Of a stretch of 64,000 nt of DNA, positions 54,690-64,000 are shown piece by piece. This DNA comes from Alphaproteobacteria bacterium. GTDB lineage: Bacteria; Pseudomonadota; Alphaproteobacteria; UBA828. The position numbers and the translations under genes are program-made. The notes beneath the pieces were generated by a model. The model was not told the DNA's origin. It saw only the letters and a program-made list of their open reading frames with translations, and did not search any database. Positions within the stretch are counted from its first letter, which is position 1, and every line of letters starts with the position of its first letter. The stretch covers positions 192,001 through 256,000 of the forward strand of contig CBDEFM010000001.1 in NCBI GenBank assembly GCA_965237415.1, read 5' to 3'.

Positions 54690-55063
54690 TCAGCCCTTCA
54701 CTGCGCCGAAGGTGAGGCCGCGAACCAGGTAGCGTTTCACAAAGAAAATCAGGACAAGCACCGGCACGCTCTGGAAGATGCAGGCGGCCGCGACCTGCGG
54801 CCACAGACCCTTGGGGTGCCCCACCAGAGACGGGATCATCGCCGTGAACGTGCGGTCCTCGCCTCCCGTGAGGACCAACGCGAACAAAAGCTCGTTCCAG
54901 GAGAATATCAGGACGAAAATGATAACCGCCACCAGTCCCGTGTATGTCATCGGCAACGCGATTTGAAAGAACACGCGAAACGGACCCGCACCGTCGAGAA
55001 AGGCTGCCTCCTCCACCTCCCGAGGGACGTCGTCGAAGAATGATTTCATCATCCAGACCAATA
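54690..55063 (-). pseudogene. 5'-truncated carbohydrate ABC permease
   Basis: WMMKSFFDDVPREVEEAAFLDG...FSWNEL...GLTFGAVKG; homology stops at the IS21 end at 55064. Confidence 0.88.
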
Positions 55064-55200
55064 TGTCAACGGCGGCGAGATTATGTACCGGCGCGGCGGC
55101 GCAAAGTTGTGCCACGGGCTGGGTGGCAGCTTGTCCCTGTAGATCCTATGAGGCGACTCGGCGAGCGGCGCTACGGTGCCGCCGGCCAGGAATCCTCAAC

Positions 55201-56394
55201 ATGAGACACGAGATGCCCCCAAGTAGCGACATCGTCGCGTCGGTCGGCGCGGAGCACAACACGCTGTACGTCGCGATCGAGATAAGCCGGAAGAGTTGGG
55301 TGGTTGGGATCAAGAGCCCGGCGAGTGAGCGGATCGGCCTGCACTCGCTTGCGGCAGCGGACGTCGTAGGTCTTCTGATCGAGCATCAGCAGACCAGGGC
55401 CGAACGCGCGCTCGGCCGTGAAGTGCGTGTTCTGTGCTGTTACGAAGCGGGCTATGAGGGGTTCTGGCTGGCGCGCTGGCTGGACCGAACGATGTCTGTC
55501 GAGACGGTCGTGCTCGATCCTGCGAGCCTTTTGGTGAACCGAAAGGCGAAGCAGCGCAAGACGGATCGGATCGACGCCAGGAAGATGGTGCGCGCGCTGC
55601 TGGCGCACGACCGGGGCGACGCGGCGGTGCTCAGCCGGGTGCGGATACCGAGCGTTGAGGAGGAAGACCGCAAGCGATTGCTCCGGGAGCGCCGGCGCCT
55701 GGTGAAGGAGCGGACATCGCTGACCAACGCGGTCAAAGGGCTCCTGAAGCTGCCCGGCATCTTCGACCTGCAGCCCCGCGCCAAGGGCTTCGAGGCCCGG
55801 TTCGCCGAAGTGAGGACCGCATACGGATCGACGTTCCCGCCGTGGGCCCGGCAGGAGATCCTGCGCCTTGCGGAGCGGTTGTCCCTCGTGGAGCGCCAGA
55901 TCGCGCAGGTCGAGGCCGAGCGCGACGCGATCGTCCGCCAGGGCGAGGCTCTCGCGGTGCCGGTGGCGCCCGAGGGAAGCGATGCGCAGGCGGCGGCGAG
56001 AATGGCGACGCTGACCCGGTTGAAGGGGATCGGCGAGAACGACGCGACCCTGCTGACGCACGAGATCTTCTATCGCGGGTTCCGCAACCGCCGGGAGCTC
56101 GCGAGCTGGGTTGGTATAACGCCAACCCCTTGGGCGAGCGGGGACACGCAACGCGACCAGGGGATCAGCCGTGACGGTCCAGCCTGGATCCGGGCTCAGC
56201 TCGTTCAAATGGCGTGGCGCTGGTTGCGCCATCAGCCAGACAGCGCGCTTAGCAAATGGTTCGAAGACCGAACCGCGGGAGGCCGGGGACGAATCCGTCG
56301 TGTGATGGTCGTAGCGCTCGCCCGCAAGCTGCTCATCGCTCTCTGGCGGTTCTGTGAGACCGGTCTCGTGCCGACAGGCGCCAGGCTCGCCTGA
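55201..56394 (+). CDS. IS110 family (DEDD/RuvC-like) recombinase
   Basis: VAIEIS, CYEAG, KTDRIDA, GITPTPWASG, ALARKL; start 55201 or 55213. Confidence 0.92.
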   Translation: MRHEMPPSSDIVASVGAEHNTLYVAIEISRKSWVVGIKSPASERIGLHSLAAADVVGLLIEHQQTRAERALGREVRVLCCYEAGYEGFWLARWLDRTMSVETVVLDPASLLVNRKAKQRKTDRIDARKMVRALLAHDRGDAAVLSRVRIPSVEEEDRKRLLRERRRLVKERTSLTNAVKGLLKLPGIFDLQPRAKGFEARFAEVRTAYGSTFPPWARQEILRLAERLSLVERQIAQVEAERDAIVRQGEALAVPVAPEGSDAQAAARMATLTRLKGIGENDATLLTHEIFYRGFRNRRELASWVGITPTPWASGDTQRDQGISRDGPAWIRAQLVQMAWRWLRHQPDSALSKWFEDRTAGGRGRIRRVMVVALARKLLIALWRFCETGLVPTGARLA

Positions 56395-56587
56395 TCCTGA
56401 GACCGCACTGTTCCAGTCCGGCCGGACGCGGCCGGCGCTGGGCCGGGTGGTGAGTGGCCGACCGTGGACAGGGCAGAAAGACGCCGCCCCGTAGAAGGGT
56501 CCCGCCTCCGGAACGCTGTGCCCGCAGCAAGCGGGATTGGGGGACGGATCCGGCGCATCGGCGCCGGAAACCGCCCGAATAAAAGTT

Positions 56588-57613
56588 GGCTCAATTCGCG
56601 AATCATATGCGCTACCTCGTCACGGCGGCGGCGAGGCAGGCGCGATCATTGGCGCCGGGGGCGAGGCCGACGAGGTGGAACCAGCTCAGATAGTTGTCCA
56701 GATAGCGGGTGGCGACCCCGCGGCGAGGTCGCAGGAAGTCCTTCCTCCGGCTGTGGCGGCTGTTCACCGTCTGCACATGCAGATCGCCCCGAACCCGTTC
56801 CCCAATCGACCGGTTGAGTGCTTCGTGGCTCACCCCGAGCGCGGCGGCGCACGGCGGGTAGCTCGCGCCGCCGTCGGAGACCAGCAGGGCGTCCCTGGCG
56901 AGCACCGGATCGAGGGCGGCCGTGAGGGCCGTCGCGTCAACCCTGGGCAGCACCGCGCTGAACGTCGTCCCGCTCCGGTCCGCTGCCATGAGAACCGGCA
57001 CCTGCTCGCGCGAGAGGCCACGCTTCTTCGCCTTGCCGCCCCGCCGCCGTGCCTTGCGCCCCAGCTTGCGCGCCCCCTTCCGGCTCTCCAGCACATAGGT
57101 CTCGTCCGCTTCCACGATCCCCTTGAGCACCCCCGAACGATGACGGGCCGCCGCCAGAAACCGATGACGCCAGCGGAACGCCGTGCTCACCGCCACATCG
57201 CAGCGCTCTGCCGACGCCTTCACCGTCTCCCCCTCCGCAAGCGAGGCCCCGAACGACAGCCAGCGCTCCTTGTGGTGCAAGCCCGACAGCGGGGTGCCGG
57301 TTAGCGCGTTGAAGGTCCTGCCGCAGCCTTTGCATTGGTAGCGCCGAAGACCACGTGCCTTGCCCCGTGAAACCGCCCCCTCCCGCGCGCAATGCGGACA
57401 GCGCCGGGCCTCGTCCACAGCGAGTTCGATCGCCGCCTTCGACGCCTCGCCCGTACTCCGGCCAGACAGAACCGCCCAGTGCCTCGCGCCGCTGTGCCCG
57501 CGTCAGCCCGCTCGCCGCCGAAAGCCAGCCCTGAAAATCCTGACTATCCATGACCAAACCTCCTGAGATTCGGGCCATTCTACCAACGATGCGTACGATT
57601 TGCGAATTGAGCC
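56588..57613 (-). mobile_element. IS1595-family element with an 8-bp TSD
   Basis: IRs GGCTCAATTCGCGAATCATATGC and GGCTCAATTCGCAAATCGTACGC; TSD TAAAAGTT at 56580-56587 and 57614-57621. Confidence 0.93.
56612..57551 (-). pseudogene. IS1595 transposase with a +1 frameshift near 57477
   Basis: MDSQDFQGWL...REAL, then frame change to AVLSGRSTGEASKAAIELAVDEARRCPHC; Zn ribbon, VEADETY, SDG, HVQTVNS. Confidence 0.85.
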
Positions 57614-57865
57614 TAAAAGTTGGGCATCCGCACGGTCGTGCGACCCATGCGAGAAGCGTTCCGACCCGGCAAGACGCGCCGCCGATCTGGCCAACCAAAG
57701 GAGACAAGACATGCTCGAGACATAGCGTGCATCGCACCTTGACTTCTGTTGCCTCATAAAAGTCCACGGGAGGGACCCGCGCGCGCGGGTCGACGCGCCC
57801 TGTGCGCGGCTGGCGGCGGCCCGCGCGTGGGTGGGGCCTATGGGCCCACGGGGACAAGCGGGGGG

Positions 57866-58300
57866 TTATTCGGACGGGCGCTGGCGTCGCGATCGGCTCT
57901 GCCTGAGCCGGTAGCTGTCTGCGTTCATCTCCAGGATATGGACATGGTGGGTGATGCGGTCGAGCAGCGCGCCGGTGAGGCGCTCGCTGGCGAAGACCGT
58001 TGTCCATTCCTGGAAGGGCAGGTTTGAGGTCACGATTGTGGCGCCGTTTTCGTAGCGCCGGCTGAAGACGTCGAACAGCAGTTCGCTTCCGGTCTGCGAG
58101 AGGGGCACGTAGCCGAGCTCGTCGACGATCAGGAGATTGACCCTGGCGAGCTGGTCCTGGAGGCGGAGGAGCCTCTTCTCGTCGCGCGCCTCGATCATCT
58201 CGTGGACCAGGTGAGAGGCGGTGGTGAAGCGCACGGAGAGGCCCTTCTGGCAGGCGGCAAGCCCGAGGGCGAGCGCGACATGCGTCTTGCCGACGCCTGA
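57866..58300 (-). pseudogene. istB: istB 3' fragment
   Basis: SGVGKTH, LLIVDELGY, TSNLPF, ALLDRITH. Confidence 0.92.
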
Positions 58301-58302
58301 CG

Positions 58303-58773
58303 GAACAGCCACACACTGCCCGATACCAGGGCGGTCCGACGAAGATCCACTACCCCTTCCACCCCCGCACGGGCCAGCGCGTGGAAGTGGTTCGGCGCCA
58401 CCGCTTCAAGGGGACCATGATCTACGTCGTCCGCCAGCCGGATGGCACGCTGGCGCAGATACCGACCTGGATGTGCTTTCCAGACGCGGCGGCGATGACG
58501 GTGACGGATCAGCCGCGGATCGCGCTGGACGCCCTGCGCGACCTCCGTTCGGACATCGACGCTGTTCTACCATCGCCCTCCCGCATGGATTTGGGAGGGC
58601 GACATGGGAAGACAGGGAGAGCTGTTGGAACTACTGGAGCCGGGTCCGGCACTCACGCCGGCGATGCGAGGGGCGGTAATCCCGATACTGGCGGCGCTGC
58701 TGCTCGAAGCGGCAGCGAACCCGACGGAGGACATGGCGGACGGGACGGCCACGGAGAAGGAGGCGGGCGATGA
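58303..58773 (+). CDS. Small accessory protein of the LSR element (Y4bD/Y4pK/DUF5372-like), open right up to the element end
   Basis: Frame reads EQPHTARYQGGPTKIHYPFHPRTGQRVEVVRRH...PDGTLAQIPTWM; first in-frame start in the integrated state is the GTG at 58381, downstream of the HYPFHP motif. Confidence 0.7.
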   Translation, partial: EQPHTARYQGGPTKIHYPFHPRTGQRVEVVRRHRFKGTMIYVVRQPDGTLAQIPTWMCFPDAAAMTVTDQPRIALDALRDLRSDIDAVLPSPSRMDLGGRHGKTGRAVGTTGAGSGTHAGDARGGNPDTGGAAARSGSEPDGGHGGRDGHGEGGGR

Positions 58774-58789
58774 ACAAGATCGCGCCTGA
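58604..58789 (+). CDS. Second small accessory ORF overlapping the recombinase start
   Basis: GGAGGG RBS; amphipathic ILAALLLEAA with an acidic tail, typical of ORFs preceding these recombinases. Confidence 0.6.
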   Translation: MGRQGELLELLEPGPALTPAMRGAVIPILAALLLEAAANPTEDMADGTATEKEAGDEQDRA

Positions 58790-60829
58790 CCATCTGGCGC
58801 GCGAGGCGGTCGTCTACATTCGGCAGTCGACGCCGGACCAGCTGCGGCACAACCACGAGAGCCGCCGTCGTCAGTACGGCCTTGCGGATCGGGCTCGCGG
58901 TCTGGGCTGGGACGAGCCCGTGATTATCGACGAGGATCTCGGCCGCTCTGGAGGCGGAACGTCGCGGCCGGGCTTCGATCGGCTGCTGCTGGCGATCTGC
59001 GAAGGGCGCGTCGGCATCGTGCTGTCGCTGGAGGCTTCGAGGCTCGCTCGAAACGGCCGCGACTGGCACACGCTGCTGGAGTTCTGCGCGCTTGTGGGCT
59101 GCCTGCTGGGCGACGAGGACGGCTTGTATGATCCTCGCCTGCCGAACGACCGTCTATTGCTGGGTATGAAGGGGACGCTGTCGGAGATGGAGCTCTCGAC
59201 GCTGCGCCAGCGCTCGCTCGAGGCGCTGCGCCTGAAGGCGTCCCGTGGCGAGCTATTCCTCAGCGTCGCGGTGGGCTACGTGAAGGTCCGATGCGACCGG
59301 ATCGCCAAGGATCCCGACCGGCGCGTGCGTGAGGCAATCGATCTCGTGTTCCGCAAGTTCGCGGAGTTCCGGAGCATCCGCCAGGTCCACCTCTGGCTGC
59401 GGCAGGAGGAAGTGCTGCTGCCGGCCGTCAGGATCGTTGGCAAGGAGCGCCATATTGTCTGGAAGCCGCCGGTCTACGGCACCGTCCACAAGCTGATGAC
59501 CAACCCCGTCTACGCCGGCGCGTACGCGTTTGGCCGGACGGAGAGCCGCGTGACCGTCGAGAACGGACGCAAGCGCGTCACGCGCGGCTTTCGCCGCGAT
59601 CGCGCGGACTGGGACGTGTTGATCCGCGATCACCACGAAGGCTACGTTTCCTGGGACGAGTACGAGAGGAACCAGCGTCTGATCGCCGACAACGCCAACT
59701 GCGGGGCTTGATGGCAAGGGGCGCCGTGCGCCGCGGCGATGCGCTGCTCGCGGGCCTGCTGCGCTGCGGACACTGCGGCCGGCGTGTGCACGTCCACTAC
59801 AGCGGCACCAAGGGGTACTGCGTCCGTTACGGCTGCCAAGGCGCGCATGTCAACCACGGCACCAGGCCGTGCATCGCCTTCGGCGGCTTGCGCGTGGATA
59901 CTGCGGTCGGCGATGCAGTGCTGCGACTGCTATCTCCGCTCGGCGTCGAAGCGGCGCTGGCCGCCATCGAGACCCGTGAGAGCGACAACGCCGAGATCCG
60001 ACGGCAGGCGGAGCTGGCGCTGACGCAGGCGCGCTACGAGGCCGATCTGGCACAGCGCCAATACGATGCCGTCGATCCAGCTAACCGCCTTGTCGCGGCC
60101 GAGCTGGAGCGACGGTGGAACGACCGGCTGGCGGATGTGCGCCGGCAGGAGGAGCGGCTCGCCGCCACTGCGGCCGCCCGTCCGGAGGCACCGTCATGCG
60201 CGGAGAAACAGCGCTTGATGGCGCTGGGCGATGATCTCTCGACGGCGTGGTCGCGCCCCGATGCCACCGCCGAGACGCGCAAGGCCATCCTGCGCGCGGT
60301 TCTGGAGGAGATCGTCGTCACGCTGGCCGATGGCTGCGTTGACCTTCTTCTCCACTGGCGTGGCGGCGACCACACGCGTCTGAGCGTGCCGCGCAACCGT
60401 AGGGGACAGCATCGCTGGGCGGCGAGCGCCGAGGTGGTCGACCTGGTTCGCGGACTGGCGAGGCAGCTGCCGGACGGCGCGATCGCGGCCACGCTCAACC
60501 GCCTCGGCAAGAAGACCGGGCGAGGCAACTCGTGGACGGAAGCGCGGGTGCGCACCTTCCGCAATAGCCGTGGCGTTGCCGTCTTCCGATCAGGCGAGAT
60601 GGCGGAGCGGGGCGAGCTGACGCTGACCGATGCCGCCGCACGGCTCGGCATCAGCAAGATGACGGTGCTGCGGTTGATTGCGGGCGGCACAATCGACGCC
60701 ACGCAGGTGTGCAAGGGAGGGCCATGGGCCATCCCGGAGGCGCTGATAGACGCCCTGTACGGCACTGACCTGCGCCAATCGCGCCCGCTAACAGCCGATC
60801 CGAACCAGGAACAGCTGGATTTTCAATAA
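58770..60829 (+). pseudogene. Large serine recombinase split by a 1-nt frameshift at about 59705
   Basis: YIRQS catalytic motif, DLGRSG, RPGF, SRLARN, recombinase domain; second frame carries the CGHC Zn ribbon, coiled coil and C-terminal HTH. Confidence 0.88.
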
Positions 60830-60861
60830 CGTAGCGAGGTGTGCATTATGCACTCGGACTC

Positions 60862-61193
60862 GAGGGCCCGAGCAGGATCGCGTTCTCGCGCCGCTCGATC
60901 CACTCGCAGCGCGCCAACTCCAGCACCTGCGCCTTGTTCAGCGCGGGGATGGCCTTGAAGTCGAAGCTCTCGAGCTGTTTGACGACGGGGAACCTGGCCT
61001 GCCTGATGCGCCGCTCGACCAGGCGGCGCTCGCGGTCGATCATCTCCAGCTCCACCAGCCGGGCCAGGAACCGCACATGATCCAGCCCCTCGGCCGTGCA
61101 CTGGCGCGCCAGTTTCTCGTACTCGCGCAGAAAGGTCGGCAGCTTCAATCTCTTCAGGTGATGCTCGAGCAGGATGCGGGGGGCCTCAGCCAT
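60862..61193 (-). pseudogene. istB: istB 5' fragment
   Basis: LKRLKLP, ARFP, FDF, ending at LLGPS. Confidence 0.92.
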
Positions 61194-62682
61194 GGCCGGC
61201 GGCCAGCAGGGTGGCGTAATCGGCGCTACGGGTGGCGGCGACGAAGGGCTGGGGGAGGTGCGGATAGCGTGTCAGGTCGAGACGGGCCGGCCGCTTCTCG
61301 ATGCGCGCCAGCAGCAGGTGCTTGACCGCATCGAAGCCGATCACGCGCCGCTTCACCGCGTCCTGCACCGCGGCCGTCACCTGGCGCTCCGGAAAGTCCT
61401 CCAGCAGGCGCAGCACCTGGATGTATTCGCGCTTGCCGCGCGGCCCGAAGCGGGCTTCGAGGAGGCGGCGCAGCGTGTCGAAGGCCGGATCGAGCTTCCA
61501 CCCCCGCAGCGGCGCCGCCTGGTCCAGGGCGCCCGGCTTCCTCTCCAGCAACGACAGATAGTGCAGCGGGTCGTAGACGACGTCGCCGCGGACATAGGAG
61601 CGCCTATGGCGGGCGACGATCTCGGCGCCGAGCGCGATCTCGACCCGGTCGACATAGCCCTTGACCGTCACCTTCTTGTGGGCGTGCACCGCCGGCGCCG
61701 AGTAGTCCACCAGCCGGTAGCGCACCAGGGCCGTCGACGAGACCTGGCCCGGCACATGCTCGCAGGCCTCGAAGGGGACGGCGGGCAGATCGCGCAGGGC
61801 GTCGAGATCGGCGAGCAACGCCGCCGCCTGGTCGCCTGCCTCCAGCGCGTCGAGCCGCTCCAGGCAGCGCGCCATCAGCCGCTCGTTCAGGACCGACAGG
61901 TCGTGCACCTTCGGGATCGGCACCATGAACCGGCGCCGTGCCGTCTTCACCAGGGCCTCCACCTTCCCCTTGTCGTTGCCTTTGCCGGGCCGGCCGAAGC
62001 GGTCGCGGAACAGGTAGTGCGACTGAAGATGTGAGAACGCCTGCGTCCTGCGGCGCGTGCCGTCCCCCAGGATCCGCGCCACCGCAAGGGTGGTGTTGTC
62101 GTAGAGGATCGAGCGCGGAACCCCGCCGAGGAAGGCGAAGGCGCTGACATGGCCGTCGAGGAAGGCCTCGGTCGTCTCCCTCGGATAGGCCTTGACGAAC
62201 CAGACATTGGAATGGGGCAGGATCAGGCAGAAGAAGGCGACCTTCTCCCGCTGCCCCCGCAGCTCCACCACCGCCTCGCCGAAGTCGACCTGGGCATGGC
62301 CCGGCGGGTGATGCAGTGGAACGAAGGCCTCGCGCGTCGATTGCCGCCGGGAACGCACATAGTCCTTCACGATGGTATAGCCGCCGGTGAACCCGTACTC
62401 GTCCCGCAGCCGCTCGAAGATCCGGTGCGCCGTGTGGCGCTGCTTGCGCGGCACATCCGGATCCGTGTCCGCCTCCAGGATCGCGTCGACGATGCCGGTG
62501 AACCCGTCCAGCTTGGGCCGCCTGACCGGCTTCGTCCGGCGGTAGCCCGGCGGCGCCGAGTAGCTCAGCATCTTCTTCACCGTGCGACGGTCGATGCCGA
62601 ACCGACGGCCCGCCTCGTGATGGCTCAAACCCTCGTCGACAACCGCCAGTCGAACCGCCGCATAGAGCTCCACGCCGTACAT
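61186..62682 (-). CDS. istA: IS21 transposase IstA
   Basis: HTH, AQVDFG, YDNT, KGKVE DDE motifs, KPGAL; ATG at 62682. Confidence 0.93.
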   Translation of the reverse strand: MYGVELYAAVRLAVVDEGLSHHEAGRRFGIDRRTVKKMLSYSAPPGYRRTKPVRRPKLDGFTGIVDAILEADTDPDVPRKQRHTAHRIFERLRDEYGFTGGYTIVKDYVRSRRQSTREAFVPLHHPPGHAQVDFGEAVVELRGQREKVAFFCLILPHSNVWFVKAYPRETTEAFLDGHVSAFAFLGGVPRSILYDNTTLAVARILGDGTRRRTQAFSHLQSHYLFRDRFGRPGKGNDKGKVEALVKTARRRFMVPIPKVHDLSVLNERLMARCLERLDALEAGDQAAALLADLDALRDLPAVPFEACEHVPGQVSSTALVRYRLVDYSAPAVHAHKKVTVKGYVDRVEIALGAEIVARHRRSYVRGDVVYDPLHYLSLLERKPGALDQAAPLRGWKLDPAFDTLRRLLEARFGPRGKREYIQVLRLLEDFPERQVTAAVQDAVKRRVIGFDAVKHLLLARIEKRPARLDLTRYPHLPQPFVAATRSADYATLLAAGHG

Positions 62683-62793
62683 CCCCCGCCCCTCGTCGCA
62701 ACCGACAAAGGACCATGGTTGGCGCATTTTTGCGCCGCCGCGACCGGACCGTCCGGTCGCTCCGCGTGGAGCATTATTCCTCCGCCGTTAACA

Positions 62794-63929
62794 CGGGGGG
62801 TTGCAGACTTCGTCGGCTGCGCCCGCCCGTCGATCGCCGATCCCTTCATTCCCCGCAAGATCGAGGAGGGCCGTCTCGACGACATCCGCGAATGCATCGG
62901 CTGCAATATCTGCGTGACCGGGGAGCATCTGAAGACGCCCATGCGATGCACGCAGAACCCGACTGTGGGCGAGGAGTGGCGCCGCGGCTGGCATCCCGAA
63001 AGGATCGAGCCCAAGGGCTCCGATTCCTCGGTGCTCGTGGTCGGAGCCGGACCGGCTGGCCTGGAATGTGCGCTCGCGCTCGGACAGCGCGGCTACCGGG
63101 TCGGGCTGGCCGAAGCCTCGCGTGAGCTTGGGGGGCGGATGACTCACGAATCCGCGCTGCCGGGCCTCTCCGAGTGGGCGCGCGTGCGCGACTACCGCAC
63201 GTACCAGATCGAGAAGCTGCATGAGCGGGTCGAGGTCTTCCGCGAGAGCGAGATGACGGCCGAGACGGCGCTCGAAGCCGGGGGTATCAGCACGTGGCCG
63301 TCGCCACCGGCTCCCGCTGGCGCCGGGACGGCATCGGCCGCGCGCATACCGCGGCAGCGATCCCAGGCAGCGATGCCGCGCATGTGCTCACGCCCAACGA
63401 CGTCTTCGCCGGCGCCACACCGGCTTCCCCGGTCGTGGTGTTCGATGACGATCACTACTACATGGGTGGAGTGATCGCGGAGAAGCTCGTCAATGACGGC
63501 CTCGCCGTCATTCTCGTGACGCCCGGTCCGGTGGTCTCGGCCTGGGCCGAAGGGGCTCTCGAGCAAGAGGGCATCCAGTCGAACCTCGTCAAGATCGGCG
63601 TTGAGATCGTCACCGGCCACAACCTGGCGCGGATCGATGCAGGCGGGGTGCAGGTGGGGGGCGTCTACGGCGAGGGCGAGCGATCTCTCGAGTGCGCCTC
63701 CGTTGTGATGGTCACCTCGCGGCTGCCCAACGATGCGCTCTACTACGCACTCAAGGAGTCGCTGGAACGCCTGGCGGAAGCCGGCATCCGATCGGTCAAG
63801 CGGGTCGGCGATGCCCTCGGCCCCGGGCTGATTGCCGCCGCTGTGTGGAGCGGCCACCGCTTCGCCCGCGAGCTGGATGGGCCGCCGCCCGGCGATGTCC
63901 CGTTCAAGCGCGAACTGGTGGTCGTGTGA
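62794..63929 (+). pseudogene. 5'-truncated, frameshifted TMADH/histamine dehydrogenase family gene
   Basis: Begins at RGVADFVGCARPSIADP directly after the IS21 end; CIGCNIC; frame change in the G run at 63280-63284; ends VPFKRELVVV. Confidence 0.88.
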
Positions 63930-64000
63930 TGTCGCCGAGCCTTGCCGACCGGCTCGCCCGGGTGAGGTCGCGGCGAGACGATCCTAAGAGTCATGCATCC

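Follow-up and report, generated by a model that had tools for sequence, protein, structure and literature searches.

In the 64,000-nucleotide window analyzed here, from contig CBDEFM010000001.1 of an alphaproteobacterial genome (lineage UBA828), an insertion sequence of the IS21 family carries three further mobile elements. Our analysis makes it highly probable that this one IS21 was invaded twice by elements specialised on IS21, and that one of the invaders was then struck by a third, ordinary element. The direct invaders are an IS110-family element of IS1111-type architecture, near one end of the IS21, and a large serine recombinase mini-element (hereafter the recombinase element), inside istB; an IS1595-family element lies within the former. 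Such a nest would preserve two distinct modes of homing to IS21: one relies on an RNA guide, the other on recognition of a conserved codon string by a recombinase.

All four layers and all of their junctions were found in the assembled sequence, from which alone the nest is known, and as an observation the four-layer nest is confirmed. Profile scans with Pfam and NCBIfam over 53.5-64 kb of the window returned the four families named in the original prediction (IS21 IstA and IstB, an IS110-family RNA-guided transposase, an IS1595 DDE transposase and a large serine recombinase) and, with these matches, its three recombination chemistries. The base-exact junctions it had described (an AG core, an 8-bp target duplication and a GA core) were borne out by empty sites and by uninterrupted copies of each layer, which a search recovered both in the genome of the window, assembled as two contigs (C1 and C2), and in sister genomes. 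IS21 is indeed the host of both direct inserts. What did not survive is the view of IS21 as a passive safe haven, since the lineages of both direct invaders home to IS21 sequence.

Architecture of the nest

Subtraction of both direct inserts (7,730 - 2,620 - 2,563) leaves exactly 2,547 bp of IS21, the approximate figure given previously, with both terminal repeats, istA and an istB that is in frame and reads GPSGVGKT. The rebuilt IS21 used for the genome comparison retained both AG copies and therefore measured 2,549 bp.

By ISfinder practice, IS21-family elements have terminal inverted repeats ending TG...CA, and they generate a short target duplication of 4-8 bp. The ends observed here, TGTCAACGGCGG... 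and ...CCGCCGTTAACA, are imperfect inverted repeats of the TG...CA type in which about 20 of the first 26 bases match, and the outermost segment (55064-55142) agrees with IS21 ends at five further places in the genome. IstA, composed of a helix-turn-helix (HTH) and a DDE integrase core, scored 264.9 bits against NF033546 (cut-off 160) and 68.4 bits against Mu-transpos_C_2, with Pfam rve at 32.3 bits just below its cut-off of 32.6. The gene for the AAA+ helper, istB, is present downstream of istA and is split: its 5' part covers positions 1-99 of NF038214 (92.8 bits) and its 3' part positions 98-232 (181.3 bits; positions 100-236 of the PF01695 profile). The corresponding open frames run over 60846-61193 (front) and 57866-58312 (back), both on the minus strand. 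The remaining family feature, a target duplication, is absent. The coordinates of all features are collected in Table 1.

Table 1. Features of the nest and its flanks, in window coordinates
Feature	Position	Strand	Remarks
Left flank, 3' fragment of an ABC-transporter permease gene	54690-55063	-	PF00528; cut by the IS21 end
IS21	55064-62793		7,730 bp, of which 2,547 bp its own; both terminal repeats
Outer IS21 end, downstream of istB	55064-55142	-	79 bp; terminal inverted repeat and target AG at 55141-2
IS110-family element, IS1111-type architecture	55143-57762	+	2,620 bp with IS1595, 1,586 bp without; one AG counted, at 57761-2
Left sub-terminal inverted repeat TATGAGGCGAC	55147-55157	+	partner at 57748-57758; 10/11 bases match
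DEDD transposase gene	55201-56394	+	397 aa, open
Guide block T (CCGTGGAC)	56462-56469	+	reverse complement of target G+TCCACGG; changes with the right flank in relatives
Guide block B (CCGTAG)	56489-56494	+	resembles left target flank plus AG core; 8/8 match in L083, L094 and L086/L095
Donor-type guide ATAAAAG	56579-56585	+	same letters as the right end of the element plus core
8-bp target duplication TAAAAGTT	56580-56587 and 57614-57621		flanks IS1595
IS1595-family element	56588-57613	-	1,026 bp; terminal inverted repeats; transposase frame 56612-57418
IS21 segment with 3' part of istB	57763-58300	-	istB part 57866-58300, starting at the Ser codon of GPSGVGKT
Large serine recombinase mini-element	58301-60863	+	2,563 bp; one GA counted, at 60862-3
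DUF5372 gene body	58301-58773	+	left end without a start codon; stop overlaps the ATG of the recombinase
Recombinase open reading frame, part 1	58770-59711	+	catalytic and recombinase domains (PF00239, PF07508); ends at a frameshift
Recombinase open reading frame, part 2	59708-60829	+	zinc ribbon (PF13408), coiled-coil region, C-terminal excisionase-type HTH
Conserved right-end palindrome GCATTATGC	60843-60851		plus-strand ATG at 60848-50, 16 nt from the crossover
IS21 segment	60864-62793	-	istB 5' part (60864-61193), istA (61186-62727), other terminal repeat
Right flank, flavin/FAD (flavin adenine dinucleotide) oxidoreductase fragment	62794-63474	+	lacks the 5' part; shares no target duplication with the left flank

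A probably RNA-guided element at the IS21 end

The IS1111-type insert is bounded by an AG at 55141-2 and again at 57761-2, and the corresponding empty site, ...GTAG/TCCACGG, is kept in two other IS21 copies of the same genome. The same site is occupied in diverged IS21 ends, namely at C2:1587977 and at the loci L082, L093 and L108.

Alignment of the 3' non-coding region from 16 relatives revealed a conserved scaffold within which the blocks T and B vary by lineage, while the donor-type block tracks the element's own end, reading ATAAGAG in exactly those relatives whose end reads ATAAGAG. Beginning with the core G or a base adjacent to it, the reverse complement of T is identical to the right flank over 10 contiguous bases in L109, 9 in L106 and L084, 8 in the window, L082 and L107, 7 in L086 and L085, and 6 in L091; in L094, 8 of 10 bases agree. 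Block B corresponds to the left flank plus AG at all 8 positions in L083, L094 and L086/L095, at 7/8 in L085, L106 and L107, at 6/8 in L082, L093 and L103, and at 5/8 in L109. In the consensus fold, T and B occupy opposite strands of one internal loop, with a long closing stem and a small hairpin between them. Rfam returned no relevant family for the window region or for the uninterrupted non-coding region of L082.

In the seekRNAs of IS1111 elements, as described in the section "A seekRNA finds the target" of PMC11187229, the top-strand match (T) lies 5' of the bottom-strand match (B). Because the stem, internal loop and hairpin, with T and B spelling the flanks, correspond to this seekRNA or bridge-RNA arrangement, the insertion site appears to be chosen by base pairing. 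The covariation of blocks and flanks thus suggests that a predicted guide RNA directs the IS1111-type element to the IS21 end. In the proposed mechanism, the element would insert at the AG 79 bp inside that end, the site being picked by guide pairing.

At one locus, L103 (G048:C1:1274401-1278594), a transposase 95% identical to that of the window is accompanied by different blocks, AGATCATGTT and AAGGTTAG, and by a non-IS21 target whose left flank ends GGTTAG. Near-identical IS1111-type transposases with different guide blocks, including this retargeted copy, provide direct comparative evidence for natural reprogramming of bridge or seek RNAs.

Placement of the element in the IS110 family stands. 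Its transposase scored 185.2 bits against NF033542 (cut-off 140), combining a DEDD/RuvC-like N-terminal domain (PF01548, 30.8 bits) with a PF02371 C-terminal domain (54.1 bits), and the non-coding region holds the target-tracking guide segments. Membership in the IS1111 sub-family is left open. The sub-terminal repeats of 11 bp, the long non-coding region downstream of the transposase gene (332 nt, against 58 nt upstream) and the position of T 5' of B all fit; the extensions of 6 and 2 bp with one AG counted (or 4 and 4) and the 397-aa transposase do not, and the transposase motif GITPTPWASG fits G-[L]-x-P-xxxx-S-G loosely. For comparison, PMC11187229 gives IS1111 relatives transposases of 330-350 aa and sub-terminal inverted repeats 11-13 bp long, with terminal extensions of either 7 and 3 or 6 and 3 bp.

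The genome of the window holds no second full copy of the IS1111-type element, only fragments at C2:1587977 (joined to an IS21 end), C2:3047164 and C2:3592323. Uninterrupted copies occur in sister genomes, at 98% identity over the full length in L082 and L093 and at 82% in L083 and L094. A search of a plasmid collection for close relatives returned only partial matches of 66-71%.

The IS1595 insert is of the ordinary kind. Its transposase has a DDE_Tnp_IS1595 domain with an N-terminal zinc finger and scored 55.4 bits against PF12762 (cut-off 27), 161.7 against NF033547 (cut-off 75) and 37.3 against NF050000 (cut-off 28). The element is framed by inverted repeats and by a target duplication of 8 bp, the length characteristic of the IS1595 family. 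This element would have transposed by DDE chemistry into the guide-RNA region, right after the donor-type guide. Its duplication TAAAAGTT overlaps the donor-type block, and the conserved RNA region is therefore left in two pieces. Relative to an intact paralogue (C1:649728-650752), one extra base near codon 27 parts the upstream ATG (57548-57550) from the transposase frame. Translation from an internal GTG immediately ahead of the zinc finger might nevertheless yield a working enzyme.

A serine-recombinase element at the Walker-A codons of istB

The second direct insert lies between GA dinucleotides at 58299-300 and 60862-3, at the Walker-A codons of istB. The uninterrupted istB of a sister genome (L114) is exactly the attB predicted by joining the two halves, and the crossover is conservative, with a 2-bp core shared by attL and attR as for large serine recombinases. 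Integration would proceed through a conservative crossover of 2 bp (GA) in the third codon of the Walker-A string. As this crossover neither gains nor loses host bases, excision would restore istB.

To place the element among its relatives, we scanned one genome per species with the N-terminal half of the recombinase; 561 relatives were found, and the best 80 were kept as loci. Among these 80, the closest is L001 (94%), and many are short-read contigs of 2,557-2,631 bp, the length of the element itself. A Walker-A motif was present 463-503 nt upstream of the recombinase start, on the opposite strand, at 60 of the 80 loci, the others having no flank (8) or no motif at that place (12). The flanks of these 60 loci belonged to PF01695 IstB in 56 cases, each from profile position 102, and to Lon in two; one matched no family (L010) and one was too short. 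The host IstB proteins represent very different subfamilies.

A register table of the 52 loci with both junctions placed the crossover within codon x of G-[P/G]-x-G-x-G-K-[S/T], at its first two bases, attL and attR agreeing at base 1 in 40, at base 2 in 49 and at base 3 in 24 of them. A GG crossover in the Pro codon, three bases further in, is allowed by the window genome alone and was dropped once this table was available. Two distant IS21 copies in which codon x is AGC (C2:52654-53073 and C2:2257160-2257588; L131 and L133) are unoccupied, and sites with TCA, ACC and CCC are occupied. There are hints here that the second core base may have to be C for the recombinase element of the window.

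Beyond istB, two relatives occupy the Walker-A codons of Lon protease, a housekeeping gene and not an insertion sequence (L009:2230-3516 and L013:2233-3516). A sister clade, with recombinase N-terminal halves about 69-70% identical, resides in IS66-type transposase genes and accounts for 5 of the 12 loci without the motif (L071, L073, L074, L075 and L079). By translation of the flanks, the IS66 site lies between the DDE domain and the C-terminal element, ...FAGSD / GGGE..., with Pfam confirming both sides in L074 (3331-3561 and 6102-7925). At L039, another of the 12, and at L056 the element sits in istB in the orientation opposite to all others, and the apparent core of L039 is a palindromic GC. 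At L018 (2687-3538), the istB back fragment beside the recombinase element is cut after 32 codons by an IS110-family transposase gene, a similar nest.

Within the genus, the 20 genomes of other species contain no close relative, the best match being 55%. Our literature search, whose coverage was incomplete, found no publication on a serine-recombinase element in istB or IS66 and none naming DUF5372, and in 418 plasmid records the recombinase gene is labelled only "recombinase family protein". Other large serine recombinases, 43-48% identical, were observed in 3-6 identical-scoring copies per genome, with open frames of 705-805 aa (sister genomes G039, G043, G045 and G046; L143-L169), and may represent further multi-copy recombinase elements.

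The catalytic, recombinase and zinc-ribbon domains are all present in the window copy, distributed over two frames. They are fused in a 90.7% identical copy of the same genome and in 67 of the 80 relatives, where one open reading frame encodes 645-706 aa. The split results from a 1-nt deletion near 59701-59706, where relatives read ...AACTGCCGGGGCCTGATGGCA... and the window is short of one C. A programmed frameshift or a natural two-piece recombinase was considered as a family trait and dropped in view of these fused frames; a split recombinase could still be a trait of the window lineage. The second frame (59711-60826) ends in an excisionase-type HTH at residues 303-348 (TIGR01764, PF12728), an unusual C-terminal addition for a large serine recombinase.

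A gene predicted to be completed at the circle joint

The left part of the recombinase element is the body of a DUF5372 gene (PF17342), which scored 27.5 bits in the window copy (cut-off 25); the profile also matches 30 of 34 aligned relatives. The ATG in the right-end palindrome comes into frame with DUF5372 only through joining of the element's two ends. Read on the minus strand, this palindrome also contributes the TAA stop of the IstB front fragment, four codons past the crossover.

Across the computed junctions of 55 loci, this ATG shares the frame of the DUF5372 motif in 49 (40 counted by script and 9 with a YAFHP/YAYHP variant read by eye from translations), is replaced by ATA in 4 and is unreadable in 2. 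The DUF5372 stop lies at most 4 nt from the recombinase ATG in 42 of the 55. Since the ATG is supplied only in the circle and the DUF5372 stop overlaps the recombinase start, translation of DUF5372 and, by coupling, of the recombinase is predicted to be circle-specific: excision would bring the ATG into frame and switch both genes on. If true, this split-gene design would be a simple means of sensing the integrated versus the free state. The predicted DUF5372 fold (mean predicted local distance difference test score, pLDDT, 81.9) is a small beta-barrel plus a helix; a Foldseek search of this model against the PDB yielded nothing at E <= 0.001, with weak SH3/Tudor-like and ribosomal eS4 rows only.

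A moderately probable extension beyond this nest is that IS21 is the prey of at least two mechanistically unrelated hyperparasites, both present in this single copy. One would be an RNA-guided insertion sequence with a guide programmed for the IS21 end. The other would be a widespread recombinase/DUF5372 family of minimal elements, apparently without a published description, that enters the most conserved codon string of a transposition gene (the istB P-loop or, in the sister clade, the FAGSD/GG site of IS66) and occasionally Lon, and whose genes stay silent until excision provides them with a start codon from the opposite end.

Independence of the invasions and state of the nest

The genome of the window contains three full copies of the recombinase element (the window copy; C2:3768526-3771088, 100% identical; C2:3640799-3638237, 99.92%), the 90.7% copy without its 3' end, and three fragments. 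Comparison of the window with C2:3767909-3773018 gave 0 differences over the 2,563 bp of the insert, against 86 differences over about 2,555 bp of the surrounding IS21 DNA (98.2% identity over 622 bp and 96.1% over 1,933 bp). Likewise, relative to C2:3636245-3641264 the insert is 99.92% identical and the IS21 DNA 97.2% and 93.6%. A fragment of the recombinase element with 98.9% identity resides in the istB of a much more distant IS21, whose motif is GPPGAGKS. Every copy of the window's IS21 that keeps the site is occupied (5/5).

One-invader copies also exist: the IS21 at C2:3767909 has the recombinase element without the IS1111-type element, and a copy in genome G048 has the IS1111-type element with an intact istB. 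The two invasions are therefore independent, and their order in the window copy is not deducible. Together with the identity contrast between insert and IS21 and the fragment in the distant istB, these copies suggest that the recombinase element arrived recently, more than once and independently of the IS1111-type element.

The claim that all four elements look crippled in cis holds for three of them: istB lies in two parts, IS1595 interrupts the guide-RNA region of the IS1111-type element, and the recombinase has the 1-nt deletion. The fourth, IS1595, is frameshifted near its start but might still be active. The IS1111-type insertion itself spares the outer 79 bp of the IS21 end and need not cripple IS21. 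The nest is probably a dead-end pile, immobile unless helped in trans.

Alternative explanations

Four other explanations were weighed. A neutral landing pad, on which three unrelated elements piled up by chance through insertions costless to the host, would agree with the commonness of nested insertion-sequence piles in this genome, with the harmlessness of IS21 insertions to the host, and with an IS1595 insertion that is unspecific beyond an AT-rich octamer. For the other two inserts it is contradicted: diverged IS21 copies, both here and in other genomes, are occupied at exactly the same base positions, 56 of 60 informative recombinase relatives enter IstB at the one profile position, and the guide blocks of the IS1111-type element spell its target. 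The contrast of 100% against 96% identity further argues against a single ancestral insertion, and we regard the landing pad as highly improbable. The same identity contrast bears on the possibility that IS21 and the recombinase element multiplied as a unit, with IstB acting in trans and the identity of the insert being kept or produced by gene conversion. The occupation of all five site-keeping copies suits this idea, as does the frameshift common to all full copies, which is awkward for autonomous spread. Against it stand the absence of any difference in the insert where the flanking IS21 of the same pair has 86, the fragment in a far more distant istB and, across genomes, the very different IstB subfamilies that serve as hosts; spread as a unit is thus unlikely.

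A false join of repeats, producing the nest itself or its connection to the right flank, is very unlikely. The stretch 57761-62797 recurs at two other loci as a 5-kb repeat with 97-98.5% identity, the IS21 lacks a target duplication, and a 21-kb inverted duplication lies near the nest, with its twin at the start of contig C1 by a truncated IS21 copy, all of which would be compatible with a chimera. Every junction, however, is base-exact and of the type that its family produces, and the IS1111-type/IS1595 part occurs only once in the genome. None of the other IS21 ends in the genome has a neighbouring sequence with which either flank would regain a duplication, and the many substitutions relative to the other copies on both sides of the recombinase element fit a distinct locus. 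It is also quite unlikely that the recombinase element is a reversible switch, turning the transposition of IS21 off and on much as skin, SPbeta and fdxN elements control host genes. Because integration is conservative and keeps the frame, excision would rebuild istB, and the recombinase has a weak match to NCBIfam XisF (55 bits, cut-off 375); yet no regulatory link was seen, the family is multi-copy and also enters Lon and IS66 transposase genes, and the many short-read contigs of element length indicate the behaviour of a repeat.

Several observations nevertheless weigh against two invasions of IS21 by specialised elements. The IS21 has no target duplication and stands between two unrelated gene fragments, with flanks GACCAATA (55044-55063) and CGGGGGGT (62794-62813); IS21 plus the recombinase element forms a 5-kb repeat in the genome, and the nest is known from assembly alone. 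The 80 loci are closest relatives, mutually related and not independent samples. In 12 of the 52 loci the first core base differs between attL and attR, a mismatch that canonical serine integrases do not tolerate. The cores vary (AC, CC, TC, GC, AG, TG) even between near-identical elements, with TC, CC and AC in this genome and CC in L076 versus AC in L078. This variation could stem from recombination between copies, L077 looking chimeric, or from mismatch tolerance. T matches its flank poorly in L083/L104 (4-5 of 6) and L108 (5/8). Finally, all three full copies in the genome share the recombinase frameshift, and an inactive element should not reach three IS21 copies alone. Possible explanations are help in trans, gene conversion, a tolerated split with a TGATG stop/start overlap, or a systematic consensus error at ...TGC(C)GGGG....

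Relation to known systems

That relatives of IS1111 target other mobile elements is already established: examples in PMC11187229 are IS4321/IS5075 in the terminal repeats of the Tn21 family and ISKpn4/ISPst6 in integron attC sites. The element of the window resembles this family in its DEDD transposase, sub-terminal repeats, downstream non-coding region, T-then-B guides, location inside a mobile element and lack of duplication beyond the core, and differs in targeting an IS21 end, in the 397-aa transposase and in its extensions of 6 and 2 bp. The IS21 end as an IS1111-type target was not found in the literature searched, of which coverage was incomplete.

For the recombinase element, the nearest described systems are Tn4451-type transposons and serine-recombinase elements inside the genes of integrative and conjugative elements. 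Like Tn4451/Tn4453 (TnpX), as outlined in part in PMC5704250 and compared here by description only, it has a large serine recombinase as its sole mobility enzyme, a 2-bp GA crossover and, by prediction, a circle form. Tn4451 uses numerous sites according to the same part of PMC5704250, whereas the window element is highly specific for the Walker-A codons of istB. It also lacks cargo, measures 2.56 kb instead of about 6 kb and is proteobacterial, not clostridial. The circle junction of Tn4451 reportedly forms a promoter for expression of the recombinase; where that junction builds a promoter, the junction of the window element would build a reading frame, namely a start codon and five further codons. 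Streptococcal integrative and mobilizable elements with serine recombinases, in the part of PMC5704250 devoted to them, integrate in traG or maff2 of Tn5252-type conjugative elements. They share with the window element an attachment site in a conserved gene of another mobile element; unlike it, they enter a conjugative element and not an insertion sequence, and they carry mobilisation and replication genes, of which the window element has none.

Two further comparisons concern gene interruption and gene expression. Large serine recombinases excise gene-interrupting elements in the pairs skin/SpoIVCA, SPbeta/SprA and fdxN/XisF. The precise, in-frame interruption that excision would undo is common to these and to the window element, in which, by contrast, the target is a transposon gene, the element is multi-copy and the XisF score is far below its cut-off. 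Junction promoters are known from the circles or tandems of IS911, IS30, IS21 and ISEc11 (Pjunc). Expression of mobility genes would likewise depend on joined ends in the window element, which, unlike these, would assemble coding sequence across the joint and not only a promoter.

Insertion sequences have specialised parasites of their own, seen here in one place. The recombinase family recognises a codon string held constant by selection on the host protein, and such a conserved string thereby becomes a ready-made, multi-copy and horizontally travelling attachment site. Each integration silences the insertion sequence that is entered and could be exactly undone. Both systems are, moreover, small site-specific DNA insertion devices of the kind under development for genome engineering.

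Flanks and rearrangement

A sister IS21 copy at C2:3145542-3148511 has a 6-bp duplication, CAAGGG. For the IS21 of the window, a flank swap between IS21 copies was considered as a way to recover a duplication, and no partner was found in the genome. The 5' half of the permease gene is absent from the whole genome, and the continuation of the permease locus of a sister genome has no match in the window's genome; the absence of this half makes a deletion adjacent to the IS21 likely. The missing duplication is thus likely due to a later deletion or rearrangement and is not evidence against membership in the IS21 family.

Beginning 1,018 bp to the right of the nest, an inverted duplication of 21 kb (99.96-100% identical) links 63812-64000 and the sequence beyond (C1:255812-273345) to C1:1-21134. 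Its twin opens contig C1, next to another truncated copy of the window's IS21 with the recombinase element. The duplication arose either from an IS21-linked rearrangement or as an assembly artefact at the contig end. Elsewhere in the genome, a left IS21 end at C2:1587977 and a right end at C2:3766884, 2.2 Mb apart, share the 5-bp flank GGCAG; it looks as if these ends belong to one IS21 that was split by a large rearrangement.

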